59,731 bases of DNA from a virus (IMGVR_UViG_3300010401_000039:1-59731), one strand, 5' to 3'; numbered from the stretch's first letter, positions 15,581 through 38,161 are shown. Notes: generated by a model from the sequence alone, not told the origin. Made by a program: numbers and translations.

Positions 15581-15666
15581 TGCGTCCTAGCGCAGAAACA
15601 CACAAAACCCTTTGCCGCCGTGCCCCGGCAGCGCCCTGCTGCAATCTAGGCGGGGTGCGGCGGTGC
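15581..15666 (+). ncRNA. Pseudoknotted 5'-leader RNA motif, copy 1
   Basis: P1 TGCG[TCCTAG]CGCA. AC-rich linker ending TTT. P2 GCCGCCGTGCCCCG/CGGGGTGCGGCGGT. P3. Loop complement CTAGG. Promoter TTGACA(15545)-17-TATGGT. Confidence 0.7.
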
Positions 15667-15672
15667 TAACGT

Positions 15673-15975
15673 ATGCAAGGACTTATGAATGCGAAGTATC
15701 CGATAAAAGCACCGCAAGATTTCACTATAGAATGCGGGTGCCAGGTGCGATTCGATAACGACGGTTATGTGCGGCTCGCACAGTGCCCAATGCACACAAT
15801 GGCCGCTGATTTGCACGATGTTCTTAAAACGATTGTGGATAAGTCGTACCTACGTCCCGGTAAACACGAGGATTGTCACGTCCACCCTGAATTGATTGAG
15901 GCGGGGCGAAGGGTGTTGGACGCAATCAAGCTCACATCTCCGCTCGCCGTCCCTGCCGAAAAGGGGGCACAATGA
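15673..15975 (+). CDS. Hypothetical protein (ECGC...QCPMH)
   Basis: ORF directly after leader copy 1. Confidence 0.65.
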   Translation: MQGLMNAKYPIKAPQDFTIECGCQVRFDNDGYVRLAQCPMHTMAADLHDVLKTIVDKSYLRPGKHEDCHVHPELIEAGRRVLDAIKLTSPLAVPAEKGAQ

Positions 15976-16193
15976 CCTTGCAAGCCTTCATTCGCGACAA
16001 TCCCGCCGAACTGGACGCCGCAATTGGCCGCGTCCTTGGCCACGTACCACGCACCGCAAGCTGCGATTGCCCGCGCTCAGGCACAGACCACTACCACGAG
16101 CCGCCGCGCCTCAGCGACGCAGACAGGCGCGATTGGATACTCAATGACGCTGGCCTTTATCGCTGGGCACGCTCAGAGGGGGTGCGAATATGA
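15972..16193 (+). CDS. Hypothetical protein
   Basis: Coupled. C-terminal DRRDWILNDAGLYRWARSEGV. Confidence 0.65.
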   Translation: MTLQAFIRDNPAELDAAIGRVLGHVPRTASCDCPRSGTDHYHEPPRLSDADRRDWILNDAGLYRWARSEGVRI

Positions 16194-16336
16194 AAACAGC
16201 CATTGCGTCAACGCGACTCAAACCGTCCGAGGTAAAGGCGCTGGATCGCTTCGCCAAGCGCCAAGGGCAAAACCGAGCCGCGCTTATCGCCGAAGTGCTG
16301 CGAATCGCGCTAAAAACCATGCGCCAGCGCACTTGA
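16190..16336 (+). CDS. Ribbon-helix-helix (CopG/Arc-like) protein, 48 aa
   Basis: MKTAIASTRLKPSEVKALDRFAKRQGQNRAALIAEVL. ATGA-coupled and below the ORF-track size cutoff. Confidence 0.7.
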   Translation: MKTAIASTRLKPSEVKALDRFAKRQGQNRAALIAEVLRIALKTMRQRT

Positions 16337-16451
16337 CGCCCGCCCGCCTCGGTGCGCTTTACGCACCGGGGTAGCATCCGCCCCGTAAGCCACGCAAGCC
16401 GCGTTTACTGCTCAGACCACCATACGACAGCGGAAACCCGCTCCCGATGGC

Positions 16452-16730
16452 TTACGGGGTTGTCACGGGCACCAAAATCTCATGGTAACGGCGTTCTGAC
16501 CTGTCTGCTGAGACACACGCCCAGCCATAAGAGCCGAAATCCTCGTTTCCGGCCAATACTTCGCGCTCTGGATAGTCCCAACCCATGATCCGCTCTGGCG
16601 GACGCGCTCGCACTTGATGGACCTCCCAATAATCGCTGTGCGCCGCCTTGTACATCACCGCGGCACCGTCTCGTTTGACCAGCATCATCGGATGACCCGC
16701 CTGCTTGTAACTGTCAGGGATTGTTTGCAT
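16452..16730 (-). CDS. Hypothetical protein
   Basis: Own leaderless promoter (TTGACG 16764-59, TATCGT). REVLAGNEDFGSYGW. Confidence 0.65.
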   Translation of the reverse strand: MQTIPDSYKQAGHPMMLVKRDGAAVMYKAAHSDYWEVHQVRARPPERIMGWDYPEREVLAGNEDFGSYGWACVSADRSERRYHEILVPVTTP

Positions 16731-16807
16731 GGCGCAACGATACCAGAACCACGCAAGCCGTCAACCAACGCACTTGACACGCTCGACGCTTCGTGTATCT
16801 TACCCGC

Positions 16808-16911
16808 GTGCAACGTCAACCTGCACCAACCAACAACGCCCGCTTTGCCGTGCGGCGCCTGCGTCTGGGCGTGGCCTCCACGCTCAGGTTGACCGCGGGC
16901 TGTCGCGCGGC
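16808..16911 (+). ncRNA. Pseudoknotted 5'-leader RNA motif, copy 2
   Basis: P1 GTGCA[ACGTCAACC]TGCAC. P2 GCCGTGCGGCGCCTGCG/CGCGGGCTGTCGCGCGGC. P3 CTGGGCGTGG/CCACGCTCAG. Loop complement GGTTGAC. Confidence 0.78.
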
Positions 16912-16925
16912 TCTCACTAAACCGT

Positions 16926-17579
16926 ATGCAAACCAACGAAACCCAAGCCCCGTCAACATCCACGCCAGCAACCGCTCAAACCGTTGTGCTCCTCAGCAAA
17001 GAGCATGACATTACCGCGTTTGCGTCAGATGATCCCAGTCGCTTTGTCATTCAAGGTATCCACTACAACGCGACGGCTGGCTGTGTCGAAGCAACCAACG
17101 GCAGGCAGCTTATTCGCGTGCCTGTCGAGCGGTCTGAGGACTTCCCGCCAGTGCCAGGTGCGTTTACGCCTGCTTCTGACGTGATTATCCCATCAGCGCC
17201 GTATAAAAAGGCGCTGGCTGGCATTCCCCGGTCAAAGACATTGCCGATCATTGAGAACGTCGCCTTGTCCGCCGTCAACGGCTCGAAGGTGCGACTGACA
17301 ACCAATGACTTAGACAACGAGAACAGCGTAGTTGCCAAGGCCATCGAAGGCAATTACCCCCGGCTGGACCTTGTTATTCCCACAAAACCGCCCGTGTTCA
17401 CAATCGCCTTGTCAGCTTACGAACTGCGAATCATCGCCGACTACTTCGCCCGGCACAGCGACGCCACAGCCGCCGTTACCTTCCAATTCACTGCCGACAC
17501 CGAACCCGTTCGCTTCGCTGGCACCTTGGCCAGCGGCAAACGCGCTACTGGCGTGCTCATGCCGTGCCCCCTAACCTAA
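16926..17579 (+). CDS. DNA polymerase III beta-clamp-like protein (short, 217 aa)
   Basis: SRFVIQGIH...VEATNGRQL...IEGNYPRLDLVIP...GVLMPC match beta-clamp domain 2/3 motifs. Confidence 0.7.
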   Translation: MQTNETQAPSTSTPATAQTVVLLSKEHDITAFASDDPSRFVIQGIHYNATAGCVEATNGRQLIRVPVERSEDFPPVPGAFTPASDVIIPSAPYKKALAGIPRSKTLPIIENVALSAVNGSKVRLTTNDLDNENSVVAKAIEGNYPRLDLVIPTKPPVFTIALSAYELRIIADYFARHSDATAAVTFQFTADTEPVRFAGTLASGKRATGVLMPCPLT

Positions 17580-17628
17580 TTGTCAACGCCAATAGTTGAC
17601 AGGCGTAATGGGCCGTGTATATTCGCCT

Positions 17629-17730
17629 TGTGAACGTCGAACCTCACAGCAACTCAAAACCACCTTGCCGCGCGCTCTCGCGTCCAATGCCCGCACCGGG
17701 CAACGGGTTCGACCGCCAGAGTTGCGCGGC
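17629..17730 (+). ncRNA. Pseudoknotted 5'-leader RNA motif, copy 3
   Basis: P1 TGTGA[ACGTCGAACC]TCACA. P2 GCCGCGCGCTCT/AGAGTTGCGCGGC. P3 TGCCCG/CGGGCA. Loop complement GGTTCGAC. Promoter TTGACA(17596)-16-TATATT. Confidence 0.78.
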
Positions 17731-17742
17731 TTTAAGGACAGT

Positions 17743-18102
17743 ATGAACATGAACCAAGCGGAAATTGAGTGGGCGGCTAGCGTCCATCACGAGTGCCCGA
17801 ATGTAAGGCGCGGGCTTCGATTGCTCTTAGCCTTAGTCGAATCAGTGAACGAACAGTCTGACGGATGGGCTTACTGGTCTGCCCCGTCCCATGCCAGCGA
17901 CAAGTTGCAGCGGCTTCTCCAATCCACCGGGAACCTCTACCACGGCACGCACGGCAGCATCACGGATGACCAGCTCAGGAAGGCGATAAGCCCAATCCGC
18001 GCAATGGTGACACGGCAGCGGGTGATTCAGGCCCGACACGGGAACAAGTTCGACTTCGATGTTGACGCTGCACTCGCCCAATCTCAATCCATCCCCCTAT
18101 GA
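17743..18102 (+). CDS. Hypothetical protein
   Basis: First ATG after leader copy 3. NEQSDGWAYW. Confidence 0.65.
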   Translation: MNMNQAEIEWAASVHHECPNVRRGLRLLLALVESVNEQSDGWAYWSAPSHASDKLQRLLQSTGNLYHGTHGSITDDQLRKAISPIRAMVTRQRVIQARHGNKFDFDVDAALAQSQSIPL

Positions 18103-18359
18103 ACAATCAAACTCAAACGCCTTTCCCGACAACCTTGGATTGGATGAAAGAACAGGCTAAATGGCGGCTCATCACTCTTGACGATGGCTCGCTCTGGCTT
18201 ACAAACGGCACTGACGGTTACAATCCAGCCGTCATGCTTGAGCAATACAAACAAGCCCTTGACCGACTCGCGCAAATCATTGCATTCGGCGCAACGGTGC
18301 TAAAACCCGCTTCTCGCCAGTGGAGGAAGGCACCATGCGTGACCTTGAATTGGCAATAA
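18099..18359 (+). CDS. Hypothetical protein
   Basis: Coupled ORF. Confidence 0.5.
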   Translation: MNNQTQTPFPTTLDWMKEQAKWRLITLDDGSLWLTNGTDGYNPAVMLEQYKQALDRLAQIIAFGATVLKPASRQWRKAPCVTLNWQ

Positions 18360-18380
18360 CCAAAGCCACGGGAGGTTCCA

Positions 18381-18581
18381 ATGACTCTTGACTCGCTCAA
18401 GGACCGCTACAACGGCGCAACCTACCACGAACGGCATCAAATGATCAAAAACGCCAGCCAAGTCGCAATGAAAGCAATGGGCGATTGGCGCGATGGTCTC
18501 ATCACCGTTGCCCAACGCGAGTCTCGCCGTGCCGCGTACTTCGCCTTGCTCGAACTCCGCAATAACATCGAAAAGGAATAA
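18381..18581 (+). CDS. Hypothetical protein
   Basis: GGAGG upstream. Operon packing. Confidence 0.55.
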   Translation: MTLDSLKDRYNGATYHERHQMIKNASQVAMKAMGDWRDGLITVAQRESRRAAYFALLELRNNIEKE

Positions 18582-18584
18582 TCC

Positions 18585-18941
18585 ATGAATGCTCAACACA
18601 CATCAGGCCCGTGGCGAGTGCATGACAAACATGTTCGGTACACGCTGATTCTGGCTGGCCCGGATGAATCCGCTAAAAGTATTGTGCTGGCCGAAGTGCG
18701 GGATAATGACTCGCGTCTTGCAACTGGCGAAGCTAAAGCCAACGCCAAGCTCATAGCGACTGCGCCCGATCTTCTAATCGCTTGCCAAATGATTCGTGCG
18801 TCGAGTTCGGCTGACTTCAAATCGTCGTTGCTTTGGGGGCAATGGTGCCGTGATATTGCCATTGCTGCCTTGAACGGTGACACCGAACTCTTGGCCCGTT
18901 GCAAGTCTTGGGCCAGGTTGATGGCTAAGGTCAAAGGATGA
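18585..18941 (+). CDS. Phage protein with HT.GPW...ANA.LIA.APDLL motif
   Basis: HTSGPWRV...ANAKLIATAPDLL, a common early-gene family. Confidence 0.75.
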   Translation: MNAQHTSGPWRVHDKHVRYTLILAGPDESAKSIVLAEVRDNDSRLATGEAKANAKLIATAPDLLIACQMIRASSSADFKSSLLWGQWCRDIAIAALNGDTELLARCKSWARLMAKVKG

Positions 18942-19168
18942 AATCGTTCAGGCTATCCTCTCGCACCCAAGCCAAGCACGAAGCCCAGCTCGCTAACATG
19001 CTGTTCGGCTTTTACATGGACAAAGCCGTCAATCGCATTGGCACAACTGGCTGGGAAGCCATTAAAGGCGATTTGACCGCAGGTCTCGCTCGCACCATTG
19101 CCAGCGGCTCAACCGAGGGCAATATCCTCGCCAAAATGCACGGTGTTCCGCCTGCCGCTGCCAGCTAA
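18938..19168 (+). CDS. Hypothetical protein
   Basis: Coupled ORF. Confidence 0.55.
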   Translation: MKSFRLSSRTQAKHEAQLANMLFGFYMDKAVNRIGTTGWEAIKGDLTAGLARTIASGSTEGNILAKMHGVPPAAAS

Positions 19169-19194
19169 CGCCCGTCACGCTGGGCCTTTATACC

Positions 19195-19380
19195 ATGAAC
19201 GCTACTGCAAAAAACGGCGACACTTGGACGGGCGAAAAGCAAGACGGCTTTTGGCTTTACCGAGACGCGAACGGCAACCTTTACGAGTCGAATGAGGTTC
19301 CCGCTTATCGCATTACAATGGACAATGCCACGCAAACGACGGTGCGCGGCAAACGAACCATAACCCAATTGCTGCCATGA
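19195..19380 (+). CDS. Hypothetical protein
   Basis: Operon packing. Confidence 0.5.
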   Translation: MNATAKNGDTWTGEKQDGFWLYRDANGNLYESNEVPAYRITMDNATQTTVRGKRTITQLLP

Positions 19381-19649
19381 GAATCGGCGATAAGGTCTGG
19401 CTAATCACAAGCAGTCTTGCCGAGGGCACTGTCACGGAGGTCCATGCCGACTTTGTAAAAGTTGCCCTCAACGACGGCAACGAAATCGCACTCCCGCCAG
19501 CCTCTGTATTTGACAACCCGCACATGGCGTTTGCGGCATGCGTTCAATGCCAACATTATTATTGGCGACGACAGGCGGAAAAGCCGGTGGACGTAATCTG
19601 CGCCAGTGATCCCGATCATCCCCAGCATCCCAGCTATCCTCGCCATTGA
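19377..19649 (+). CDS. KOW/SH3-like hypothetical protein
   Basis: MRIGDKVW...GTVTEV...VKVALNDG. Confidence 0.55.
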   Translation: MRIGDKVWLITSSLAEGTVTEVHADFVKVALNDGNEIALPPASVFDNPHMAFAACVQCQHYYWRRQAEKPVDVICASDPDHPQHPSYPRH

Positions 19650-19682
19650 CGCCCCTCCCTCCCTTGGCGTATCGTCCGCCCA

Positions 19683-20024
19683 ATGAGCGCCGTTGCCGAA
19701 TGCGTAGCTGATCCGCCCGCCTTGCGTCCATCCAGACCGCCCGGCCCGCGCTCTGGCGTCCATCGCCTCTCCGCACTCACTCAAGCCATGGACCTGAAAG
19801 ACGTTGCCTACCGCGATGGCACGGCCGACTCAACCCCCGTTCATATCAAAGCCGCCCTAATGCGTGCTTGGGTTGACCTGCAAGAAATGGCGATGGCATT
19901 GCGCGGCCAGGGTAAGCCGAAACCAGTCGAGGCGCGCAACGCGACACCCAAGCGCAAGCGTGAAAGTGTCGCGCCAATCGCGCCAGCAAGCGCGTCCACG
20001 AACGCAGTTGACAAGAGCGCGTGA
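19683..20024 (+). CDS. Hypothetical protein (weak candidate for small terminase)
   Basis: Own leaderless promoter TTGACG(19646)..TATCGT. Helical core with a basic tail. Confidence 0.5.
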   Translation: MSAVAECVADPPALRPSRPPGPRSGVHRLSALTQAMDLKDVAYRDGTADSTPVHIKAALMRAWVDLQEMAMALRGQGKPKPVEARNATPKRKRESVAPIAPASASTNAVDKSA

Positions 20025-20040
20025 TAGTGTAGGCTACGGG

Positions 20041-20144
20041 CGTCGAAGGTCAAAGTTCGATGAACCGTCACGCAAAATTTGCCGCTGATCTGTGCGCCTC
20101 ACTGAGCGCCCGCTCCGTGAACTTTGACCGCGCGGGTCGGCGGC
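20041..20144 (+). ncRNA. Pseudoknotted 5'-leader RNA motif, copy 4
   Basis: P1 CGTCGAA[GGTCAAAG]TTCGATG. P2 GCCGCTGATCTGTGC/GCGCGGGTCGGCGGC. Loop complement CTTTGACC. Promoter TTGACA(20008)-16-TAGGCT. Confidence 0.78.
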
Positions 20145-20156
20145 TTCCTTCATTAT

Positions 20157-20492
20157 ATGAACCCACACAATACGGACGTTCACTCGATTCGCTACAGCGA
20201 CGAAGTGAAACGTGAAGCCGTGGCGCGATTGCGAAACGGCGAGAGTTACAAAGCGGTCGCAGCGTCCATCGGTTGCCACACCAGCAACCTCTCAATATGG
20301 AAGCGCAACGTCGAAGGCACAACGCCAGTGAAACGCGCTCACGGTTGCCCACATTGCGCGGACCTTATCGCGGCGTTGCGCCTGGTGCTCGCAAGCGCCG
20401 ATGGCTCGCACGCGCTCCGGGCCAGCGTTAATCAAATCGCGGAGCAGGCCATTGCTCGCGCCACACACAGCGACAAGGAGGCTGCGTTATGA
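20157..20492 (+). CDS. HTH DNA-binding protein (transposase-type HTH, no catalytic domain)
   Basis: RYSDEVKREAVARLRNGESYKAVAASIGCHTSNLSIWKR. Confidence 0.7.
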   Translation: MNPHNTDVHSIRYSDEVKREAVARLRNGESYKAVAASIGCHTSNLSIWKRNVEGTTPVKRAHGCPHCADLIAALRLVLASADGSHALRASVNQIAEQAIARATHSDKEAAL

Positions 20493-20788
20493 ACGCCGCG
20501 TTAATAGAGATTGGCCCGAACCTGGTCGCTGCGCTCAATGAGCTGTATCCTGAATCGTCGCCGGTTGAGCAAATAGAGTTGCTGCTGTGTGAACACGATT
20601 TGCAGGCGCAAGCCGAAGTCACGGCCCTGCGCGCCGAACTATCCGCGCTCGCCGCAAAACTAGACGCGACGCGCGCCGCTTGTGAAGCGGTGTTAGCGTT
20701 CTCGCGCACCTACGACAATCTGCTAGGCCACATACCCAACGCCGACCAGACTCGCCTTGTGCGGCAACTGCGCGCCGCCCTCGCCTAA
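20489..20788 (+). CDS. Coiled-coil hypothetical protein
   Basis: Coupled ORF. Confidence 0.6.
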   Translation: MNAALIEIGPNLVAALNELYPESSPVEQIELLLCEHDLQAQAEVTALRAELSALAAKLDATRAACEAVLAFSRTYDNLLGHIPNADQTRLVRQLRAALA

Positions 20789-20808
20789 CCCTCACCGCTA
20801 CCATCACG

Positions 20809-20838
20809 CCCGGCCCGTTCACGCGCGCCGGGTTTTTT
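20809..20838 (+). terminator. Intrinsic terminator
   Basis: CCCGGC...GCCGGG followed by TTTTTT at the end of the rightward early block. Confidence 0.65.
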
Positions 20839-21048
20839 ATGCCCGTGTACTTGTACCGCTTCGCCCGCCGATTGCGGCTCGCGCCGCATCGACGTTCTCC
20901 GCTATGGCAGGCGCACGCTGCGACCCGCCCAGCGCCGGGCAGGCGGCAAAAAAGAGAGCCTAGGTTGCTTTGTCCGCACGACCGTCCCCGCACCGTCCGG
21001 GTGGCATGGGCGCAGGTGGGCGAGATGCGTCGCGTTGGGACTCCGGCT

Positions 21049-23458: not shown

Positions 23459-23466
23459 AGCGTCGC

Positions 23467-23741: not shown

Positions 23742-24083
23742 GTGTTCACCGTTTACGTCCTGTCGCTGCTCTACATTGACGGTTATTACGTCGGCTTCAG
23801 TTCCAACTTTCCGCGCCGACTCACCCAGCACATCCTTGGCGAAGGCGCGAACGTCACCAAGGAATTTGGCGTGTGCTCCATTATGCACACCGAACCCGCG
23901 CCTGACGCTCCCTCAGCCATTGCTCGGGAAGGCCAACTTACCCGCCTCCTACGCCAACAGGGTGCCATTGCTTGGGGCGGCTCGCTCGCCACCACGAAGC
24001 CAAGACTGAAGAACTTCTTGCACCGCGCATCGCGTATCATCGACCCGAACGCGCCGGAGCGAAGCAGGCCAAGAATATCGTAG
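23742..24083 (+). CDS. Stand-alone GIY-YIG nuclease
   Basis: FTVYVL...YYVGFSSNFPRRLTQH...G...T...AIAREGQL. Confidence 0.8.
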   Translation: MFTVYVLSLLYIDGYYVGFSSNFPRRLTQHILGEGANVTKEFGVCSIMHTEPAPDAPSAIAREGQLTRLLRQQGAIAWGGSLATTKPRLKNFLHRASRIIDPNAPERSRPRIS

Positions 24084-24180
24084 CAATTCCGGCCGTAGCG
24101 TGCGGTGCGCGAAGCGCATGGCGAAGCCAAGCACGCGGAGGCTTGTCCAGCGAAGCACGCGGACCCCTCCCAGCGAACCA
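24059..24180. repeat. Cluster of GCGAAGC mini-hairpins and short direct repeats
   Basis: GCGAAGC at 24059, 24109, 24121 and 24150. AAGCACGCGGA occurs twice. Confidence 0.6.
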
Positions 24181-24248
24181 TATCGTCGCCTGCGCGTATA
24201 TACAGTACGTACAATAGGCGACTTAAAAACGCCGCACCTGCCGTGGGA

Positions 24249-26567
24249 TTACTCCTTGTTCTTGGTCGCGCTGGCCTTCTTCGCCGCTGCCTTGGCTTCC
24301 GCTTCCGCCTTGCGCTCGATGGCGCGCACTTCGGCTGCCGTCTTGGCGTGCTGCGCTGCCGTCTCCGCCACGCCCTCCATGCCCGCAACGAACACGTCGG
24401 CACGCGTCTTTTCCATCTCGTGCGCCTGCTTCTGGCGGAACGCAGCTTCCTTTTGTGCGAGCTTCTGCTGGTCGCTGACCTGTTTGGCCTGCACCTTTGC
24501 TTGCGTGGTCGCCGCAATCGACGCCACCTTGGCCATCGTCTCCGGGTCTTGGTGCCCGTTCTGTTGCGCTGCCATTTCTTGTTGCCGTTGCGCGAACGCC
24601 TTAACCTGATTACCCAGCTTGCCCAAGAAATCGCGATACTGTTTCACGCGCTGCGCCTCGCTCTCGTCCTGCTCCAGCAAATCAATGTGCTGCGTCACGT
24701 AAGCTGCGGCATTCGTTATCCCGACCACGTCCTGCGGCATGCCCACGCCGCCGCTCTGCTCAATCTGCTGCACCTTCATGTCCATCATTCGTAGCAGCGT
24801 TTCGATAACTTCGCGGTGCGAGTCGCCTTCCTTGACTGGCATCGGCACGCCGGTCATCAGCGTCCCCCACGCAAGCGCCGCATCGAACACCGTGTCTGTG
24901 ATCTTGTTCGGCTTGATTGGCGCAAGCTCATCCGCTTCCGCCGCGCTGTCCGTCACCGCCAGCACCAACTTATGCAGCGTCCGTTGTTGCGCCGACGGCT
25001 CCATAAACTGCCGCACGCTCATCAGTTTGTCCGCGCCGGCCAACTCAAGTTGCTTGCTGCCGCCGCCCATGACGGTCTCGGCGCGTATCTCCCAGCGGTC
25101 CGAGTCCAACCACTTCTCAAGCACGCCCGCCTCGCGGCACCGCTTCTGGAACGCCTTCGCGTCCGCGTTGTGCGTGTCCTTCAGGCACAGGCGCCGACAA
25201 ATCTCGCGATACTCAAACTCCGCCTGTATGTACGCATTATTGAGCAGCGAACTGAGCAACGCGCTGGTCTGCGCCAAGAGCGCTTGCACCTCGAACTTGG
25301 TGCGCTCCTTCTCCGTCCCGCTGTCGATGTCCTGTGTGTAGCTGCTCGCGCTCTCGCCCATGTATTGCTTCAGGTTGCTGAACAGCATTTGGCTTAGCTG
25401 CGGGTCAAACTGATAACGGTCCTCGCGCTTCACAAATCCAATGCCATCGGGCAGCAGGCCGTAACGAAGGCCGAAGTGGATTTTATCGACGGCTGCGCGA
25501 TCCGCCGGGTCTTGCACTCTGAGCAGTAACAGAAAGTCTTCGTGAACCTTCGACACGAAGCGGTTCATCGTCATGTCCTGTATCTGGCATAGGTCAAATA
25601 GCAGGAATCCAAGCGACCGAATGCTGTAGAACATGAACGGCGCTTTGTGATTCGAGTCGCCGACTTGCATGTGCAAAATCTTGTCGAGCGAGTCTGTCAC
25701 CGGGCGCTTGCTCTCGTACAAAAACTCGTCGAGTTCGTTTACGGTGCCGTAGCTGTTGGTGAATTCGCGGTCCAACACGATTTGCAGGTTCCACTCGCCG
25801 GTCTCGTCATCTTGCGAGTAGAAGTCGAAGCACCATATCTTGGGCACGGCATCGGACTGCCAGTAAACGCAGTTTTGCTTGTAAAGCTCTGCGGCCTTTT
25901 CGGGATAGTTTACCCAATCGTACGCTTGGTCCGATGTGTCGTCCTTCTTTATGGCTTGCAGAACGCGCCTCACCATCTTGACGTTCCATCCCGGATCAAT
26001 GTTTTCGTCCTTGGCAATCGTCTTGCGGTAAAGTTCATACGGCGTCATTCCGCGACGCACCGAGAAGTGGGAAATCCCGTTCAAGCTAACGGGCGTATCC
26101 GTGGGGCACAGCCAATCTTCAATCGCGATGAAGTCAGGAATCAGTTGGTCCTTGTCGAACCACATCTTGATGGCTACGCCGTTGAGCATCACTGACGCGC
26201 CCGTCTCACGAATCAAGCTCCAGTACTCTCGCGAGCGCTTCAATGGTCGATTCGCCTCCTTGGTAATGATTTGCCCCCATTCTAGCGCTTTATCCACCGG
26301 GGCATCCTCAAGGGAAACGTTAAAGTAGTGCGCCGTCTTGCCAAAGGCGTTCTCGTATTGCCTTCGGGCCGTCGCGAGCAGATTTGAGCAGGTCTTGGTC
26401 GAAAAGTTGACATCCAGTTTGTTCTCCGCCATCTGCGCGTCAGTAAAAGGCGGCAACCCGTTCGCTTGATTTTGGATGAGCACGCGGTTACGCGCCCGAA
26501 TCTCGTCCGCGAGCCGCATGCTTTGAATCACCTCGCCAACTTTGGTGGCTGTTGATGTGTCGCTCAT
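24249..26567 (-). CDS. Portal protein (P22/podovirus-like with long helical C-terminus)
   Basis: About 772 aa, in the same operon as terminase, with a Q/A/K-rich coiled-coil tail. Confidence 0.75.
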   Translation of the reverse strand: MSDTSTATKVGEVIQSMRLADEIRARNRVLIQNQANGLPPFTDAQMAENKLDVNFSTKTCSNLLATARRQYENAFGKTAHYFNVSLEDAPVDKALEWGQIITKEANRPLKRSREYWSLIRETGASVMLNGVAIKMWFDKDQLIPDFIAIEDWLCPTDTPVSLNGISHFSVRRGMTPYELYRKTIAKDENIDPGWNVKMVRRVLQAIKKDDTSDQAYDWVNYPEKAAELYKQNCVYWQSDAVPKIWCFDFYSQDDETGEWNLQIVLDREFTNSYGTVNELDEFLYESKRPVTDSLDKILHMQVGDSNHKAPFMFYSIRSLGFLLFDLCQIQDMTMNRFVSKVHEDFLLLLRVQDPADRAAVDKIHFGLRYGLLPDGIGFVKREDRYQFDPQLSQMLFSNLKQYMGESASSYTQDIDSGTEKERTKFEVQALLAQTSALLSSLLNNAYIQAEFEYREICRRLCLKDTHNADAKAFQKRCREAGVLEKWLDSDRWEIRAETVMGGGSKQLELAGADKLMSVRQFMEPSAQQRTLHKLVLAVTDSAAEADELAPIKPNKITDTVFDAALAWGTLMTGVPMPVKEGDSHREVIETLLRMMDMKVQQIEQSGGVGMPQDVVGITNAAAYVTQHIDLLEQDESEAQRVKQYRDFLGKLGNQVKAFAQRQQEMAAQQNGHQDPETMAKVASIAATTQAKVQAKQVSDQQKLAQKEAAFRQKQAHEMEKTRADVFVAGMEGVAETAAQHAKTAAEVRAIERKAEAEAKAAAKKASATKNKE

Positions 26568-27214
26568 AGATTCAAGAGTTGTTGTGCTCCACGGTAAGCC
26601 GCCCACTCAATTAGCGATTTGGCACCTTTGCTAAGATTGCAAGGTCCGCAGGAAACGCACAGATTTTCGACTGCGTGCAGTCCGCCCTTAGAAAGCGCGA
26701 TGATGTGGTCGAAGTGAATGGTGCGTGTAGAAACTCTCTCTTGGCAGTAGTAGCAGGTTGCAAGGGGCTTTGCCTTTATGCTCCGCACGAAGGCTATAAT
26801 GCCTTGCATGTTGATTGTGGCCGCTTTCTTTAACGCGTTTCGCTTTTGCACGCGGGCGAAACTCTCTGCTTTGTGCCCTTTGTAATAGGCAACGCCCTGC
26901 TCACGCAGCTTTTCTCGGTTGGCTTCTCTGTAAACGATGCCTCGCGATTGCCTCTTTTGTTTGTGCTGCTCTAGTTTGTGAGGGTCGGCTTTTATTACGT
27001 CACGCGCCAAAGCTGCCTGCTGTTTTGCATGCTCCTGGTTTGCCTTGTAATATGCCGCGCCTCGTCGAAGTCTGCGCTCCCTGTTTTTTGTGTGGTATTC
27101 GGCTTGGTAACGGCGTTGCTTCTCGATGACTTCGGCTTTCTGCGCCTCGGTCATGGATTGCCAGCGACGGCGACGATACTCCATCTTTCTTTGGCTCTGC
27201 TGCGTGGCGCTCAT
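26564..27214 (-). CDS. HNH endonuclease
   Basis: CYYC...HFDHIIALSKGGLHAVENLCVSCGPCNLSKG. Basic helical N-terminus. Confidence 0.9.
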   Translation of the reverse strand: MSATQQSQRKMEYRRRRWQSMTEAQKAEVIEKQRRYQAEYHTKNRERRLRRGAAYYKANQEHAKQQAALARDVIKADPHKLEQHKQKRQSRGIVYREANREKLREQGVAYYKGHKAESFARVQKRNALKKAATINMQGIIAFVRSIKAKPLATCYYCQERVSTRTIHFDHIIALSKGGLHAVENLCVSCGPCNLSKGAKSLIEWAAYRGAQQLLNL

Positions 27215-29526: not shown

Positions 29527-32364
29527 TCAAGCCGCAGTCTTGAGGCGCATGCTGGCGATGAGCTTCCTGTGCCGGTCGTTGAGTTCTTCCAGCCAGCTTT
29601 TGCCGCCCCCCTCGATGAACTTGTCAGCGCCCAGTTTGGCTATCTGCAAACCGCGTTGCCGCGCCCCTTCCACGGCCGTCGCCAGCCAGTCCGCCTCGTC
29701 CGGCGACCTGCCGATGCGCTGCTTGGTTTTGTCCTTCGGCTCCACGTCGCGCTTGTTGCCGCCGACAAAGATGAACTCCCGCATGAAGAACTCCTGGGCG
29801 ACCGACTCCGGCAACTCCCGCAACTGTTCGCTCTCCACTAGCCAGCGCACCGCGAACCAGAACTCGCTCACCCGCTTCTGGTATTCCTCGTCGGCGCGCT
29901 TCAACCTGCGCTGCTGCGTATGCTGATCCACAACGAACAGGTCCAGACGCACCGGCCTAGCGCTTGGCCTGCCTCCGAACTCCACCGGCACTGGAATTAC
30001 ATGCCCGAACACCCGCGCAAACGCTGCGCCCAGCGTCCCGCGCCCCGTCGAGTCATAGAACACGTTCTCGACCGGAATGCCCTCACGCAGGCACTCGTCG
30101 CGCACATGCTCGGCAATTTCGTCCTCCGGCTCCGCACCCCGCTTCATGCCAATCTTGATAACGTGCGGCTTCTCGACGCGCACAATCTGCTTGCCGTCCA
30201 CGTCGTCGCCGAACTCAATCCAGCCCCCGACGCACCTATCGCCTCCGTACGCCGCGTCCACGGCATAAATCTTCGTCCGGTTCACGCCCTTCCATGTCGC
30301 CTTCTCAAACGCCTTGTGAATTGTGCAAAGCTGCTTCGTCAAGACTCGCTGCGAGTCTTCGCCCGGCCGCATGATGCCCAAGCACATCGCGTTGAACTCC
30401 TCGCTATGCGGCCCGTAGAACCGCAGCGTGCTGTCAATGCGCTCTTGGTCGATCAGGAACGGGTAGTGCCGCCCGTCGCCCTCGAAGTTCGGTGAGTCTG
30501 TCCCGACGAAGTTGATGCACTTGCCCTTCGCGTACTTCGTCGCCCAAATCGTCGTCTTGGTGATGTCGCGCACGCTGCCCCAGCCCAGTTCCGGTTCGCA
30601 CGACTGGCCCATCGGCGAGTGCTCCCCGTTCACCGGGTTCGCGATTGGGATGAAGAAGAAGCGCTCGTTTTTGTCCAAGTTCGACGTTGCCCGCAAATAC
30701 GAAATATGCATGAGGCTGCATTCATCCGCCACGAGGAATACCCACTTGTTCTTGATGCCGACGAACGGTCCGATGCCCACCCAGTGCTCTCCCTTGTAGC
30801 AGTTGTGGACGATTACACCGTTGACTGAGTAGCTTGGATGTCCTGCAACTTCGAGATTGTGGACTCGATAGCCTCCTTGACCCGCGTCGTATCGTTCATC
30901 GCCTTCTTGTTTGAGAATCTCAACACGGTCCACCCAAGCTCCCTGAGTCGGCCGTCGCGGAATTTGTCCTTCGTTGCCACACTCGGAATCCGATGAATGC
31001 CGCCGTCGATTTCCACGCCTAACTTCAACGTTGGAAAAGCCACGTCCACCTTGTACCCGTGTCGTCTGCCGTCGGCCTTCAACAAGCCGCTCCTGACGTA
31101 AAGGTTCCACGTTGCGTCGGGAAACAGCTTCCAGATGATTAGTTCCTCTGGCGTCGGCATCCTGCCCTTGCGATGGTGCCGCTTGGAAATCCACTTCAGC
31201 CTGCAAGATAGACCGCAGAACCGCGTCCTGTCCTTCGCGGGCGATTCGCGCAGCGAAACAAAAGCCTTCCCACACCGCTGACAAGGCATCGTCTCCGGGC
31301 GATTGCGGCATTGCACTGAGCAGAAGTCGCGGTTGTGATGCACAGCTTTCATTGGTTGCCCGCAATTCTTGCACGCCTTCGACACTTTCTTGATGCAATC
31401 TTTGTGTGCGGCTGCCCATCGTCCCGCGCAATCCGTACCGCAGAAACGACCGGATCGGGCGTTGCTCTTGCGCCACGGGCGAAACGGCTTCTGGCAATGA
31501 GCGCAATTTTTGGGTGGTAGGAAAATGCGGCACTCGCTTGAGCAGTACTTTCGGTTGGGATAGCCCGGTCCCAAGTTCCCCTTGCAAGAGGCGCAGCGTT
31601 TCATGCGCCGAGAATACCCTGTCATAAGTCTCCAAGTCACGTACTTTCACCCATCCTCGTTGCGTAAAAAACGGATGTTCCTCTGTGCAATCTATCATTC
31701 GGCCATCCGACAAGTGAACTCGGAATGCTCGGTCAACTATTCTTGTGTGCGTCTCGGTAATGGTTCCGATGCCAGAGGCATTGAAAACCTTGTCTCCAAC
31801 GCGCAATGTTTCGATGGGCTTTGGACCGCTCGGAGTGTCAACCAAAGTGCCCGGTAAAAAACATGCAATCCCAATCACGCCGTTTCTGAAATCACGCGTG
31901 TCGCCGTCCTCGCTTCGGTCCGTGATGATGCACCGCTTATAGTCCAGCGCCACGCCCGGCAAATCGTCCCACCGCGCCTTGGCCTGTTTGTGCAGCTTCT
32001 TCACTTCGCCCAATATGCCGAGGTCCAATTTCTGCACCGTCGTCGTCGTCAGCAGTATCGTCGTCTCCTCCGGGTAAACGTAGTAATGCGACAGGACGAA
32101 CTTGCTCGCGTAATACGTCTTGCCGCAGCTGCCCGGTCCGAGCAGCCCTACCATGCCGCGCTTGCGAAACTCGACGCAATCCGTGAACTCGCGCAGCGCC
32201 AAGTCGCTCCACTTATTGTGCTCGTCCTCCCACAACAGCGAGTGCAACGCCCGATAATGCGTAAACAGGTCTTTGCCCTGCCGGATGCACCATTTCTCGA
32301 TGTCAATGGCGCGCGTGCCCGCTTTCCAATGATGCGAGTACCGCTCGAAGGTCGCCGTTGCCAT
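29527..32364 (-). CDS. terL: Terminase large subunit with intein
   Basis: Walker A GPGSCGKT, Walker B FLVADEC, nuclease AVDAAYGGD...YDSTGRG...GRSPDEAD. Confidence 0.9.
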   Translation of the reverse strand: MATATFERYSHHWKAGTRAIDIEKWCIRQGKDLFTHYRALHSLLWEDEHNKWSDLALREFTDCVEFRKRGMVGLLGPGSCGKTYYASKFVLSHYYVYPEETTILLTTTTVQKLDLGILGEVKKLHKQAKARWDDLPGVALDYKRCIITDRSEDGDTRDFRNGVIGIACFLPGTLVDTPSGPKPIETLRVGDKVFNASGIGTITETHTRIVDRAFRVHLSDGRMIDCTEEHPFFTQRGWVKVRDLETYDRVFSAHETLRLLQGELGTGLSQPKVLLKRVPHFPTTQKLRSLPEAVSPVAQEQRPIRSFLRYGLRGTMGSRTQRLHQESVEGVQELRATNESCASQPRLLLSAMPQSPGDDALSAVWEGFCFAARIAREGQDAVLRSILQAEVDFQAAPSQGQDADARGTNHLEAVSRRNVEPLRQERLVEGRRQTTRVQGGRGFSNVEVRRGNRRRHSSDSECGNEGQIPRRPTQGAWVDRVEILKQEGDERYDAGQGGYRVHNLEVAGHPSYSVNGVIVHNCYKGEHWVGIGPFVGIKNKWVFLVADECSLMHISYLRATSNLDKNERFFFIPIANPVNGEHSPMGQSCEPELGWGSVRDITKTTIWATKYAKGKCINFVGTDSPNFEGDGRHYPFLIDQERIDSTLRFYGPHSEEFNAMCLGIMRPGEDSQRVLTKQLCTIHKAFEKATWKGVNRTKIYAVDAAYGGDRCVGGWIEFGDDVDGKQIVRVEKPHVIKIGMKRGAEPEDEIAEHVRDECLREGIPVENVFYDSTGRGTLGAAFARVFGHVIPVPVEFGGRPSARPVRLDLFVVDQHTQQRRLKRADEEYQKRVSEFWFAVRWLVESEQLRELPESVAQEFFMREFIFVGGNKRDVEPKDKTKQRIGRSPDEADWLATAVEGARQRGLQIAKLGADKFIEGGGKSWLEELNDRHRKLIASMRLKTAA
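30802..31863 (-). mobile_element. Intein (354 aa) in terminase
   Basis: Block A CFLPGTLV, block B CTEEHPF, block F/G VHNLEVAGHPSYSVNGVIVHN, +1 residue Cys. Confidence 0.92.
30813..31604 (-). CDS. Zn-finger + DUF559/Vsr-like endonuclease nested out of frame inside the intein
   Basis: Four CxxC...(F/Y)CxxxC repeats, then TPEE..W...YKVDVAF...LGVEIDGGIH...DKFRDGRLRELGWTVLRF. Confidence 0.85.
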   Translation of the reverse strand: MKRCASCKGNLGPGYPNRKYCSSECRIFLPPKNCAHCQKPFRPWRKSNARSGRFCGTDCAGRWAAAHKDCIKKVSKACKNCGQPMKAVHHNRDFCSVQCRNRPETMPCQRCGKAFVSLRESPAKDRTRFCGLSCRLKWISKRHHRKGRMPTPEELIIWKLFPDATWNLYVRSGLLKADGRRHGYKVDVAFPTLKLGVEIDGGIHRIPSVATKDKFRDGRLRELGWTVLRFSNKKAMNDTTRVKEAIESTISKLQDIQATQSTV

Positions 32365-35400: not shown

Positions 35401-35402
35401 TT

Positions 35403-35969
35403 ATGGCACGCACACCACGCCCCTATATTTGTCAGCTTTGCGGCAAATCCTTCATGGCTGACTGGAAAAATCCGAAGTGTTGCTCTCATGCGTGCGCGGC
35501 AAAAATGACCATAGGCAAAGTTGGAGCAGAAAGCCGATGGTGGAAAGGCGGTCGAAGGCTCACGAATTGGGGTTACATAGACGCTTGGACTGGGCCGAAC
35601 ACAGCAAAACGCGAGCATCGCATATTGGCTGAACGTGCGCTAGGCCATCCTTTGCCCAAAGGTGCGGTTATTCATCATTGGGATGAGAACAAATCGAACA
35701 ACTCTCCCGGCAATCTGGTAATTTGCCAAGACAACGCCTACCACAAATTGCTGCACGCTCGAAAGCGTCGATTGGACGATACCGGATCGTTCGATTTGAA
35801 GCGGTGTCGTGTGTGCAAAGTCGTGAAGGCTGTGTCGGCTTTCTCTGTCGCTAAATTGGAATGGGACGGCAAACGTAGCGCCTGTAAGGAATGTGATAAC
35901 GCTAGAAACCTTGAGTACTATTATCAGGCGCGAGCGAAAGGCAAAGCGTGGGCACTCCGACACACGTAG
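35403..35969 (+). CDS. HNH endonuclease with Zn fingers
   Basis: CQLCGK, WKGG...GY, EHRILAERALGHPL...IHHWDENKSNNSPGNL, CRVC...CKEC. Confidence 0.88.
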   Translation: MARTPRPYICQLCGKSFMADWKNPKCCSHACAAKMTIGKVGAESRWWKGGRRLTNWGYIDAWTGPNTAKREHRILAERALGHPLPKGAVIHHWDENKSNNSPGNLVICQDNAYHKLLHARKRRLDDTGSFDLKRCRVCKVVKAVSAFSVAKLEWDGKRSACKECDNARNLEYYYQARAKGKAWALRHT

Positions 35970-37906
35970 AATGCTTTGAGGGTCCAGAGTGTTGTCCTGT
36001 TCCGGCACCGCCATTTTACACACAGGGCAGAGTTTACGCGTCCGATCAAACTGGGTTCCTGTTGCAGTGCCAAAGTGGATTCTCCTGCGATCCGGGGGCA
36101 TACCCGCATCCCATAGTTATTCCAAAGGGTGCGATTCCTTTCACACCGCCGACGGGCATGAATCCTTTGCGATTTACATGTTGTGACGGCGCAATCGCGA
36201 TTAGGTATCTGGCAGACGGATTTACACAACAAGAGTTTGACCAAGCGGCGCAGTCGATTGCTAATGAAGCCGCCCAGCACCTCGCGCTCTGCGAAGCCGC
36301 CGCTTACAACGCGCAGCACGCCCGCCAGAACCCGAACTGCGTCATCTCCACGCCCGGCACGTTGCCCGAAGCCTTCTCCGGCACCGACTACTTGGCGACC
36401 TTGGAACAGTCCGGCGCACTCGCGCCCGTCGTGTGGACGGTGGTTGGCGGCACTTTGCCTGGTGGCTTGAGCCTGTCCGCTGATGGTGTCATTTCCGGTA
36501 TGCCGATGGTGTCGGGGCTGTTCACGTTCGTTGCGCAAGCCACAGGCGCAGCCGAACCCGTCACAGGCAGGCGTCTTGTGTGCAAGCGCGTGTTCCGGCT
36601 CACCGTCTCGACTGACGTGCCCTGCGACCTCGGCGTCAGCGACAACACCAGCTTCGGCGACCGCGCCCTGAACACATTCGACTCCACCGCCACCGTTCAG
36701 TGGACGAGCCTGAAGATCGGCACCTACACCGTGCAATACGTCAGCGGCGGTGTCGCCTCCAACTTTCCGGTGCTCGGCTCCGGCCCTTCGTCGCCGTGGT
36801 TGGTCAACCCGCAGTTCTTCGCCGGGCCGCCCGACAGCAACGCCCAGCTTGTCCATGACGGCACCACGCGCCTTGAACTGCCTTGGGGCAAGTGCGCCGA
36901 AGCCTCCTTGGCCGATCTCGAAGCCAACTTCGACGGCAACGCCGTGGGCTGTGGCACCGCAGGCGGGTTCTTGCCGCCACAGGGGCGCACCATCCAGTTC
37001 CAGAGCCTCGGCGCGACCATCTTCATCGACGTGCAGACCACCTGGGCACCCAACTCCGGCGCATCCAACTGGCGTCTCACGCGCATCCGCAAGCCCGCGC
37101 TCGACTACCAAGCGATGCAGCTTCGCATCGTCAATCTCGCGTCGGTGCTCACCAGCCTGACGCCATTCTCCGGCTGCGCCGCTGGTGCTGGCACCCTTTG
37201 GGATGGCACCTTTCCGGCGTTCGAGCCGAACCTTAACTACGTCAATTACGAGTGGCGCGTCACCAGCGGCTTTGCGCCGTTCCAGCTCAATAGCGCGCTC
37301 CTCGACACGCCCGCCGCCGTTAAGGTCTATCACGACACCGCTGGCCAAGCGACGCCCACCGGATGTGCGTGGATTCTCGCCGTCACCTACCTCCACCCCG
37401 TCCAGGGCAACGTCGTCTCGTGGGTTGGCCTTGGCGGCGCTGGCTACGCGCCCGCTGGCACCTTCGTCTTATCCTCCGACGTGGTCGGCTGGACGATGTT
37501 CGGCAAGAAAACCGCGTGGCGAGTTGCCACGACCGTTGCGCTGCCAGCCAATACCCGCGTCCTAAATGTCCTCACCGCGAATGCCAACGGCGCGTTGCCT
37601 GCCATCGACGGCATCGCCTTGTCCGTCGCCGACCGCGTCTTGGTCAAGGACGAGGCGACGGGCGCAAACAACGGCAGCTACGTCGTCACCTCCCTTGGCA
37701 GTGGCGGTACGCCTTGGGTGCTTACGCGTTCCGCCGACCTCGATACCAGCGCCGAAATGTTGCGCGGCATCTTCGCCCCCGTCACCGACGGCCTCACGCT
37801 CGCCGGCTCCCACTTCCGCCTCGTCACCAACGGCGTCATCACGCTCAACGCGACCGCTCTGTCCTTTACCGCCATCGCGCCCACCATCGCCGTCGAGGAG
37901 TATTGA
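35948..37906 (+). CDS. Virion/tail protein with putative Ig (He_PIG-like) and fibre-base domains
   Basis: WTVVGGTLPGGLSLSADGVISGMP and IDGIALSVADRVLVKDEATGANNGSYVV...WVLTRSAD. Cys-rich N-terminus. Confidence 0.75.
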   Translation: MGTPTHVECFEGPECCPVPAPPFYTQGRVYASDQTGFLLQCQSGFSCDPGAYPHPIVIPKGAIPFTPPTGMNPLRFTCCDGAIAIRYLADGFTQQEFDQAAQSIANEAAQHLALCEAAAYNAQHARQNPNCVISTPGTLPEAFSGTDYLATLEQSGALAPVVWTVVGGTLPGGLSLSADGVISGMPMVSGLFTFVAQATGAAEPVTGRRLVCKRVFRLTVSTDVPCDLGVSDNTSFGDRALNTFDSTATVQWTSLKIGTYTVQYVSGGVASNFPVLGSGPSSPWLVNPQFFAGPPDSNAQLVHDGTTRLELPWGKCAEASLADLEANFDGNAVGCGTAGGFLPPQGRTIQFQSLGATIFIDVQTTWAPNSGASNWRLTRIRKPALDYQAMQLRIVNLASVLTSLTPFSGCAAGAGTLWDGTFPAFEPNLNYVNYEWRVTSGFAPFQLNSALLDTPAAVKVYHDTAGQATPTGCAWILAVTYLHPVQGNVVSWVGLGGAGYAPAGTFVLSSDVVGWTMFGKKTAWRVATTVALPANTRVLNVLTANANGALPAIDGIALSVADRVLVKDEATGANNGSYVVTSLGSGGTPWVLTRSADLDTSAEMLRGIFAPVTDGLTLAGSHFRLVTNGVITLNATALSFTAIAPTIAVEEY

Positions 37907-38023
37907 CAGCGCCCGCCGTCCGCCTCATGCTGCCCGCGCTGGTCTCCCCGGCCAGCCGTCCTAAACTCGGGAACCTTGGTGAAAAGTGGGCGCTCGCGAT
38001 TGCATACCGCGGGCGCTCTTTTG
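37903..38023 (+). ncRNA. Candidate small RNA (promoter, hairpin, terminator)
   Basis: TTGACA(37903)-17-CATGCT. Hairpin GCTGG..CCAGC. GGGCGCTCGCG/CGCGGGCGCTC followed by a T-run. Confidence 0.45.
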
Positions 38024-38058
38024 CTTTCGTTCGCGTTGCGGTTCTGTTGAAATCAGCG

Positions 38059-38161
38059 CATCGGATTCAGAGCCGATGGAAGCCACAAATCAATTTGCAC
38101 CTGCTCGCTCTTGTGAGACGGTACCCTGCCAGTCTTCTCTGAAACCTGAGCGGGCGGGTGT
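38059..38161 (+). ncRNA. Pseudoknotted 5'-leader RNA motif, copy 5
   Basis: P1 CATCGG[ATTCAGAG]CCGATG. P2 GCACCTGCTCGCTC/GAGCGGGCGGGTGT. Loop complement CTCTGAA. Overlaps the GIY-YIG start. Confidence 0.75.

Follow-up and report, generated by a model that had tools for sequence, protein, structure and literature searches.

The stretch of DNA that we have analysed (IMGVR_UViG_3300010401_000039:1-59731, the window in what follows) is a complete IMG/VR virus record of 59,731 bases, rated 100% complete, with a GC content of about 60%. It comes from an uncultured soil phage. The window contains five copies of a leader RNA, all of them in the plus strand and with a length of about 85-107 nucleotides (nt) each. 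They belong to a genuine family of cis-encoded 5' leader RNAs which had not been catalogued previously. Each copy has a short hairpin (P1), a linker poor in G, a long stem (P2) which encloses a second hairpin (P3), and a strand complementary to the loop of P1 which we will call the anti-loop. An original prediction had placed a recurrent pseudoknotted leader at five positions of this strand, and the sequences are found there; a covariance model matches positions 15581-15666, 16807-16913, 17628-17732, 20041-20146 and 38058-38163.

The copies, their promoters and the genes which follow them are all in the plus strand. Copy 1 (15581-15664, 69.6 bits) lies after a promoter TTGACA-17-TATGGT, found by the promoter scan at 15545-15573, with a predicted start at 15580/15581. 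Its P1 occupies 15581-15594 and its linker 15595-15613; P2 is formed by 15614-15627 with 15651-15664 and P3 by 15628-15642. The pseudoknot joins CCTAG (15586-15590) to CTAGG (15646-15650). The first gene after it (15673-15975) codes for a protein of 100 amino acids (aa) with no family; an in-frame ATG at 15685 is preceded by AAGGA. Copy 2 (16808-16911, 52.5 bits) follows a promoter TTGACA-16-TATCTT of the same scan (16774-16801). It has P1 in 16808-16826, the linker in 16827-16846, the outer arms of P2 in 16847-16911 and a pseudoknot between 16815-16823 (GTCAACCTG) and 16885-16893 (CAGGTTGAC). The next gene (16926-17579) codes for a protein of 217 aa which resembles a sliding clamp (phrog_3007/phrog_947).

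Copy 3 (17628-17730, 57.4 bits) is found after the scanned promoter TTGACA-16-TATATT (17596-17623). P1 is in 17628-17649, followed by the linker and by P2, with its outer arms in 17667-17730, and the pseudoknot is formed by 17636-17643 (GTCGAACC) with 17706-17713 (GGTTCGAC). Its gene (17743-18102, 119 aa, phrog_22197) has AAGGA 5 nt before the ATG. Copy 4 (20041-20144) has a score of 46.1 bits when it is held out of the model. It follows a promoter TTGACA-16-TAGGCT (20008-20035) and shows P1 in 20041-20062, the linker in 20063-20080, P2 in 20081-20096 with 20129-20144, P3 in 20099-20120 and a pseudoknot of 20048-20058 (GGTCAAAGTTC) with 20119-20129 (GAACTTTGACC). The gene after it (20157-20492) codes for 111 aa with an HTH_Tnp_1 domain and a weak similarity to a small terminase phrog. 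Copy 5 is distant from the others (38059-38163, 78.5 bits), with P1 in 38059-38078, the linker, the outer arms of P2 in 38095-38163 and a pseudoknot of TTCAGAG (38066-38072) with CTCTGAA (38137-38143). In this case the promoter scan found nothing: an extended -10-like sequence TGnTGAAAT (38045-38053) was read by eye, and upstream of it there is a terminator-like hairpin with a T run (about 37990-38029, also by eye). An open reading frame (ORF) for a homing endonuclease with GIY-YIG and NUMOD3 domains (38076-38933) runs through this copy.

As had been predicted, copies 1-4 are preceded by promoters of the type TTGACA-16/17-TAnnnT, which end 5-7 nt 5' of P1. They are the only perfect TTGACA promoter matches in the plus strand, so that four out of four bear the leader. 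The transcription start sites used here are predictions from the promoter consensus: in every copy with a recognisable promoter, the predicted +1 is 0-1 nt from the first paired base. Two further features of these regions may be mentioned. A promoter-like sequence TTGACC-16-TACACT in the minus strand (20026-20053) overlaps the P1 loop of copy 4, either as an antisense promoter or by coincidence. Also GTCAA/TTGAC is present in the pseudoknot strands of copies 2-4.

The secondary structure is very constant. RNAfold gives the same nested layout for each of the five copies, with z-scores from -2.4 to -4.0 when compared with dinucleotide shuffles, which confirms the architecture proposed at the outset. 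It consists of a P1 hairpin of 4-7 base pairs (bp), 17-20 unpaired nt, a long GC-rich P2 with the hairpin P3 inside it, and unpaired nucleotides on the 3' side of P3. The latter contain the anti-loop, which abuts the 3' arm of P2 and is separated from P3 by 0-1 nt. The strands of the pseudoknot are found at fixed places, at positions 8-11 and about 79. Since P3, the pseudoknot and P2 share one continuous strand, the three helices can stack on each other; we infer that they may form a coaxial rod of about 30 bp, which the linker would cross. An intrinsic terminator or attenuator was considered and rejected: there are at most three consecutive U after P2, and no copy is among the sites given by the terminator scan.

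In the whole family the predicted 5' end of the transcript is always within a helix. The linker has 17-23 nt with 0-2 G, it is rich in A and C and ends in YTT (once in TTA, once in TTC). The base of P2 starts with a G-C pair, followed by C-G, and this second pair is C-G in 15 of the 15 rows of the alignment described below. The paralogs have otherwise diverged: they only keep the fold, the G-poor linker and these two base pairs. Wherever a downstream gene is present, its start codon is found 8-20 nt past P2.

Two covariance models were built from the window. The first one (R1) is based only on copy 4. Applied to the whole window, it gives copies 3, 2 and 5 as its top three other matches (26.1, 25.2 and 19.3 bits, E from 5e-5 to 3.5e-3), while copy 1 only has rank 7 (E 0.22), with P1 misplaced. 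The second model (R2), built from copies 1, 2, 3 and 5, recovers copy 4, which it had not seen, with E 7e-8. Its sixth match in the window has 15.4 bits and is the reverse strand of copy 5. A match as weak as this one, to be compared with the 46.1 bits of copy 4, indicates that the window has exactly five copies. MAFFT alignments of the copies (A1, A2, A3) ignored structure and were excluded from all counts.

We looked for relatives of this phage with the clamp-like protein encoded after copy 2. It is found in two IMG/VR contigs and 13 metagenome contigs, with protein identities of 45-99%. In the latter, R2 gives 18 matches at E <= 0.01, distributed in 10 of the 13 contigs; some of the matches are near-identical copies (judged by eye and by script). 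No match at E <= 0.01 was found in L018, L020 and L021, in which the leader of the clamp gene is short or a simple hairpin. Other contigs show how the element varies. L010:4882 and L012:2885 have compensatory changes in P3. L010:3831 is a variant of copy 1 in which the P1 stem differs and the linker is longer. A natural degenerate form of copy 1 is found at L012:505-590, and also at L017:3693-3778 and L008:4693-4778: P2, P3 and the anti-loop are kept, and the promoter and P1 have been swapped for an unrelated sequence, so that the partner of the pseudoknot is lost. New members with their own pseudoknots are those of L016 (GCGAACC/GGTTCGC), L009:1683 (GTAAGACC/GGTCTTAC), L013:8803 in the minus strand (TTTACG/CGTAAA) and L013:4853-4984 (AGAGACAC/GTGTCTCT), the latter with an additional hairpin in the linker.

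The polymerase-associated protein led to a 56.6-kb phage record (G004), with 57% identity. It has a copy similar to copy 1 (TAGAGAC/GTCTCTA, 27.7 bits) and another one similar to copy 3 (CTGAACAC/GTGTTCAG, 26.5 bits). Two HNH genes of this phage are also preceded by the element, one by a weaker copy (18.2 bits) and the other by a variant (10.5 bits). A pattern scan of the viruses in IMG/VR gave 60 loci. Two of them were known relatives; among the other 58, which were searched with the model, there was a single weak match (L053, 19.3 bits). It lies in G003, a phage of 42 kb with 46% GC, which has two copies after TTGACA promoters: they are its two best matches, with 19.3 and 14.8 bits. In these copies the P1 stem is missing or has only 3-4 bp, and the transcript pairs directly, through its first 9-10 nt, with the strand that precedes the 3' arm of P2 (TGCTTTGAG, GTGTCACAGT; duplex -15 kcal/mol). 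They probably belong to the family. Since they lack a proper P1 and their 5' end is nevertheless paired, a base-paired 5' end appears as the universal feature of these leaders. G003 also has a unit in the minus strand (about 26640-26764) with a promoter TTGACT-16-TAGATT, in which the first 10 nt of the transcript pair about 85 nt downstream, followed by a strong terminator: it resembles a small RNA and is unrelated to the leader family.

In bacterial genomes the scan with the clamp protein gave no relative. A narrow pattern scan (16-nt promoter spacer, TTTGCCG...GCGGCT) gave 70 loci, none of which matches the model, so that neither a prophage copy nor a clue to the host was found. The spread of the family given here is a lower bound, as the model was run on selected loci and the scans of the collections used narrow patterns. 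We also prepared a stricter descriptor, which requires a P1 hairpin, a G-poor linker, a GC-rich P2 of 7 bp and a complement with a minimum of 6 nt. It gives 21 matches in 0.31 Mb of sequence from the clade, nearly all of them true copies. In 2.08 Mb of unrelated loci it gives 16 matches; five of these have a complement of at least 7 nt, and one of the five is a copy of G003.

The structure is strongly supported by covariation. An alignment of 18 matches guided by R2 (A9) has 15 distinct rows. Fitting to a model favours the structure, but the effect found in P1 and P2 far exceeds any bias from this origin. In these two helices 93.2% of the 310 cells are paired, and 19 of the 21 pairs show changes on both sides. 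None of 500 column shuffles attains any of five measures, and pairing falls to 26-50% when the partner is slid by 1-3 columns. The alignment also identifies the strand: 41 of the 310 helix cells (13%) are G-U, which would be A-C on the opposite strand. The RNA is therefore transcribed from the plus strand, as the original prediction had it, and the model scores at most 15 bits on the reverse strand. A DNA-level repeat or an RNA from the minus strand are ruled out by these two results.

The pseudoknot was studied with our own script, since the model alignment places the anti-loop in insert columns. Two segments were compared, the initial 28 nt and a segment of 38 nt ending 12 nt before the 3' end, and the length of their longest Watson-Crick complement was taken. 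Nine independent classes have cognate complements of 5, 9, 8, 11, 7, 7, 8, 6 and 8 nt, with a sum of 69. The 72 non-cognate pairs have a mean of 4.5, and four of them reach 7 or more. None of 20,000 random re-pairings attains the cognate sum, so that the covariation of loop and anti-loop that had been noticed in the window is clearly present. The pairs are those originally proposed, but those of copies 2 and 4 extend further than was thought, to 9 and 11 nt. In these two copies the complement continues into the 3' strand of P1 and the 3' strand of P3. Shuffles of single copies vary in strength: they are weak for copy 1 (178/500) and L013:8803 (69/500) and strong for copies 2, 3 and 4 (0-5/500).

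Comparison of corresponding leaders in different phages leads to the same conclusion. The orthologous leaders before the clamp gene have GTCAACC/GGTTGAC in the window, GCGAACC/GGTTCGC in L016 and AGAGACAC/GTGTCTCT in L013. Copies similar to copy 1 have CCTAG/CTAGG in the window and TAGAGAC/GTCTCTA in G004; those similar to copy 3 have GTCGAACC/GGTTCGAC and CTGAACAC/GTGTTCAG, respectively. When G004 and G003 are included, there are 13 different pseudoknot sequences with one architecture. In copy 4 and its ortholog in L013 a T-to-C change in the extension of the pseudoknot goes together with one from A to G in the partner strand, even though it breaks a pair of P1. This change suggests that the pseudoknot may compete with the inner part of P1.

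The genes found after the leader are unrelated to each other. This fact indicates that the element is tied to the 5' end of the transcript and not to a particular gene product. It is a portable element, as was anticipated, exchanged among mosaic relatives. Five copies, in three phage lineages, are found directly before genes for homing endonucleases: GIY-YIG with NUMOD3 in the window (38076-38933), HNH_3 in three cases and GIY_YIG_2. The other four genes are L013:7613-8074, two in G004 (24063-24596, and 18262-18789 in the minus strand) and one in G003 (10678-11034, minus strand). The leader of copy 4 precedes the HTH gene in the window and an HNH gene in L013; the two loci look like an allele pair with and without endonuclease.

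The relation of the leader to start codons deserves some attention. The endonuclease of copy 5 was said to start inside P1: the ATG at 38076, in the 3' strand of P1, is in fact the only in-frame ATG of this ORF, and the ATG at 38173, which is 9 nt past P2, is out of frame. The same ORF has no in-frame ATG, GTG or TTG after the leader; an in-frame ATT (38169) immediately precedes the GIY motif. In G003 the ligase-like ORF (L053 1434-2162) also runs through its leader, with ATA ATT directly after P2. At L013:8803-8905, in the minus strand, there is a promoter-proximal copy; the 160 nt downstream are C-rich and G-poor, and this copy could head a non-coding transcript.

It had been proposed that every P1 contains ATG or GTG. 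This is true, but its simplest reading is a C-R-T-S context of the start site together with its palindromic image. The triplet at +1 is RTG in seven and RTC in four of 11 distinct copies (by eye); copies 4 and 5 begin with GTC and ATC, so that they have no start codon at +1. The upstream ORFs of copies 1 and 3 do terminate at the downstream start, as described, while the one in copy 2 extends about 80 nt into the next gene. These ORFs have 29, 66 and 38 codons in copies 1-3, and their peptides are unrelated. In the variant of copy 1 at L010:3831 the ORF has 3 codons, and in L019 it stops inside P2 (by eye). A leader-peptide attenuator based on such an ORF was rejected: there is no conserved short ORF, since lengths and peptides differ and are not kept in relatives. 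The supposed restriction of the leader to genes without a Shine-Dalgarno sequence does not hold, since AGGA-type motifs are found by eye in about 7-8 of the 12 copies with a clear downstream start.

No cultured relative was found: the INPHARED collection of cultured phages gave neither a DNA match for region 15000-21000 nor a tblastn match for the protein of 785 aa (these were the two queries made). Very few proteins of the window carry PHROG or Pfam names. A rough gene map, based on GC3, shows a minus-strand replication block at 2-13.8 kb with pieces of DNA polymerase and an exonuclease, a region of small plus-strand genes at 13.8-24 kb which harbours copies 1-4, a second minus-strand block at 24-33 kb and a last block, which starts at 33 kb and reaches the end, with large plus-strand genes that are presumably structural and with copy 5. 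The DNA polymerase is apparently split over separate ORFs in the minus strand, with an exonuclease/UDG-like part and a polymerase part (5402-6901 and 2721-4118). Relatives of the exonuclease/UDG-like part are present on contigs of 55-59 kb, which suggests a sizeable clade of uncultured phages. The genome has many selfish elements: a Hint/intein protein of 945 aa (29527-32364, minus strand), an HNH gene (26564-27214, minus), an HNH_3/AP2 gene (2230-2745, minus) and a phrog_314 homing endonuclease (50559-51866, plus). The leader is absent from all of them. Four minus-strand promoters of the type TTGAC(A/G), at 13837, 15356, 16764 and 23689, have an ATG 7-10 nt past the -10 hexamer. They probably give leaderless mRNAs for small genes of 78, 76, 92 and about 61 aa, and are divergent from the leader-bearing promoters or back to back with them. 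A run of ten C (15421-15430) is found about 115 nt upstream of the promoter of copy 1.

What can be the function of this leader? From its position and anatomy we tentatively favour a portable module of the 5' untranslated region which would protect the 5' end of the transcript and frame the start of translation. The transcript would begin at the first nucleotide of the leader, as set by a sigma70-type phage promoter. Its 5'-terminal segment, shown in the P1 loop or as the bare 5' end in G003, would pair with the strand between P3 and the 3' arm of P2. The 5' end would then be buried, and decay that depends on it would be hindered in the manner of the ompA stabiliser. At the same time the leader would supply the adjacent start site with a fixed and insulated structural context. 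Promoter, leader and gene could move together as a cassette, including those with homing endonucleases. We prefer this interpretation because the paired 5' end is kept in the copies of G003 which lack P1, the start codon is always close and the downstream genes are unrelated.

Several points weigh against this interpretation. The start sites are those given by the promoter consensus. In the known cases a simple 5' hairpin suffices for stabilisation; the conserved pseudoknot, together with a fixed linker and a conserved, U-flanked GC/CG base of P2, suggests that the leader has a partner of a more specific kind. There are also two ORFs which traverse the element, that of copy 5 and the ligase-like one of G003, and L013:8803-8905 (minus strand) has no ORF starting within 80 nt downstream.

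The specific partner might be a trans-acting factor, for which the leader would be an operator or loading site that switches transcripts off or on during infection. Candidates are a phage or host RNA-binding protein, a protein of the Hfq or S1 type on the A/C-rich linker, or Rho on the G-poor strands which flank P2; recognition would depend on the shape and a few conserved bases. One module at the head of several operons is what a regulon-type operator would look like. Sequence is conserved only at the base of P2, with its nearly invariant G-C and C-G pairs, and in the flanking YTT and TY, and the linker is kept poor in G in genomes with 46% and 60% GC. However the loops have no conserved bases, the strands of the pseudoknot vary freely and we found no candidate binding protein, in a phage where most early proteins have no family. 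On balance we consider this possibility unlikely.

A somewhat less probable function is that of an RNA which stays on the polymerase that has made it and confers resistance to pausing and termination. The put RNAs of phage HK022 provide the precedent: they are found after both early promoters, and putL starts to pair at nucleotide 3 of its RNA and does not require a protein; they suppress downstream terminators through the zinc-binding domain of the polymerase beta' subunit (PMC9378689). Every perfect TTGACA promoter of the plus strand has our element at +1, and copy 5 restarts transcription directly after a terminator-like hairpin. But there are only weak terminator-like sites downstream of copies 1-4, and with leader-bearing promoters every 0.8-2.4 kb processive antitermination would be unnecessary. 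The tight spacing of the start codon would not be explained either, and the architecture differs from the V and triplex of put as described in that source.

The leader might also be a signal for RNA processing, which we find improbable: either a self-cleaving ribozyme with the mirror topology of pistol, or a substrate from which RNase III, E or P would trim the leader. The order of strands is that of pistol, which is often associated with phages, with the partner of the pseudoknot on the other shoulder (PMC4604425). P2, the asymmetric internal loop and P3 resemble RNase III sites of T7, and the U at -1 and the G at +1 of the base of P2 resemble contexts of RNase P or E. However there are no conserved unpaired nucleotides beyond the linker, whereas pistol has ten conserved positions and a cleavage junction of 2 nt in the same account (PMC4604425). 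There is no 3' CCA after P2, and copies 1-4 have no Rfam match at E <= 10.

It is still less probable that the leader is primarily a part of homing endonuclease cassettes which damps translation of the endonuclease, the other copies being leftovers of endonuclease traffic. Such an origin would agree with the five copies found before HNH or GIY-YIG genes in three lineages, with the exchange of HTH and HNH genes after the leader of copy 4, and with the genes of T-even endonucleases, which are regulated by hairpins at the ribosome-binding site; seg43(25) has a hairpin upstream of a free site (PMC2988022). But most copies precede ordinary genes, and at the clamp gene the orthologous leaders persist, with covariation, over protein identities of 66-67%, which speaks for selection in place. 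Finally, a chance similarity or a DNA-level repeat without RNA structure is almost certainly not the explanation: a loose structural descriptor yields many false matches in a GC-rich genome, but the covariation of P1, P2 and the pseudoknot, the G-U cells, which would be A-C in the other strand, and the enrichment of the stricter descriptor in the clade all speak against it.

A more ambitious proposal is that the family is a new functional class of RNA, with a double-crossing fold which mirrors pistol, travels with promoters and endonuclease genes between unrelated phages and acts on a cellular machine. It might be a cap-like knot which blocks a 5'-end-sensing nuclease or defence of the host, a put-like modifier of the polymerase or a ribozyme, in any case more than a passive stabilising hairpin. 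We give this proposal a small chance.

We know of few phage cis-acting RNAs which follow a promoter rather than a particular gene; the classical ones are nut, put and RNase III sites. The divergent paralogs described here, several in one genome, give unusually clean natural compensatory evidence for a pseudoknot. The presence of leaders in phages with 46% and with 60% GC, and in front of genes for homing endonucleases, suggests that we are dealing with a mobile expression module. Synthetic biology would gain a compact natural 5' untranslated part if the leader stabilises transcripts or insulates them; if it acts on the polymerase or on RNases, it would represent a new mechanism of early gene control in phages.

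We will finish by comparing the leader with RNAs already known. The Rfam library includes the pistol ribozyme, with a size of about 50 nt, as compared with about 105 nt for the leader. A cmscan with Rfam 15 gave no match at the gathering thresholds in the whole window and none at E <= 10 in 15400-20400, which contains copies 1-4; copy 5 was covered by the first scan only. The original prediction did not recognise any family either, and these scans agree with it also for the ZTP (pfl) riboswitch and the c4 antisense RNA. The description of the motif was not found in Rfam or in keyword searches of the literature, although it may already be listed in a catalogue (PMC10690425) which contains about 10,000 candidates for structured RNAs, drawn from IMG/VR. 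Some of these candidates are upstream of genes annotated as RusA. The clamp-like gene after copy 2 matches a PHROG with this name.

Pistol and the leader have several features in common. Both contain a short hairpin P1 and, after a linker, a P2/P3 hairpin with an inner junction, to which the loop of P1 pairs as a pseudoknot. Pistol, too, is often associated with phages. In pistol the loop pairs with the junction which joins the left (5') shoulders of P2 and P3, while the right junction has strictly 2 nt and contains the cleavage site, with ten highly conserved nucleotides (PMC4604425). In the leader the partner is the right (3') junction, with a variable length of 5-11 nt, so that its topology is the mirror image of pistol. 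The anti-loop is found between the 3' strands of P3 and P2 in every copy that was examined (14 copies, plus those of G004 and G003), which agrees with the early view that this is not a pistol ribozyme. The conserved core of pistol is missing: the leader has no conserved unpaired nucleotides except in the linker.

The put RNAs of HK022 are similar in that they are folded RNAs after phage promoters, with several copies per genome and pairing from the 5' end. Their length is about 70 nt, and their two stem-loops form a V in which stem I contains a triplex; a pseudoknot of a loop with a bulge is absent, and putR is located about 270 nt from the start (PMC9378689). The leader has 85-130 nt, with P1 and a bipartite P2/P3 stem joined by a pseudoknot, and it abuts the start codon. 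T-even phages also have very stable RNA structures directly before the start sites of endonucleases: I-TevI, segB and mobE are regulated by hairpins at the ribosome-binding site, and seg43(25) has a very stable one immediately 5' of a free site. These are simple hairpins which mostly sequester the site, with an effect that depends on the promoter (PMC2988022). In contrast, the leader is a pseudoknotted domain which starts at +1 and also serves genes other than endonucleases.

The 5' stabiliser of ompA reportedly consists of a 5'-terminal hairpin which leaves almost no 5' nucleotides unpaired, a single strand, a second hairpin and the ribosome-binding site, in work attributed to Emory, Bouvet and Belasco in 1992 and to Arnold, Yu and Belasco in 1998. 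This is also the order predicted for our leader. They differ in that ompA is not known to have a tertiary pseudoknot and its leader belongs to a single gene, whereas here we have a portable family in many copies. The leader of T4 gene 32, which is mentioned in PMC10690425, resembles ours in that it carries a pseudoknot at its 5' end, and that an unstructured sequence and the start site come next. It is however specific for its gene and is autoregulated by its own product, unlike the leaders in the window, which precede unrelated genes.

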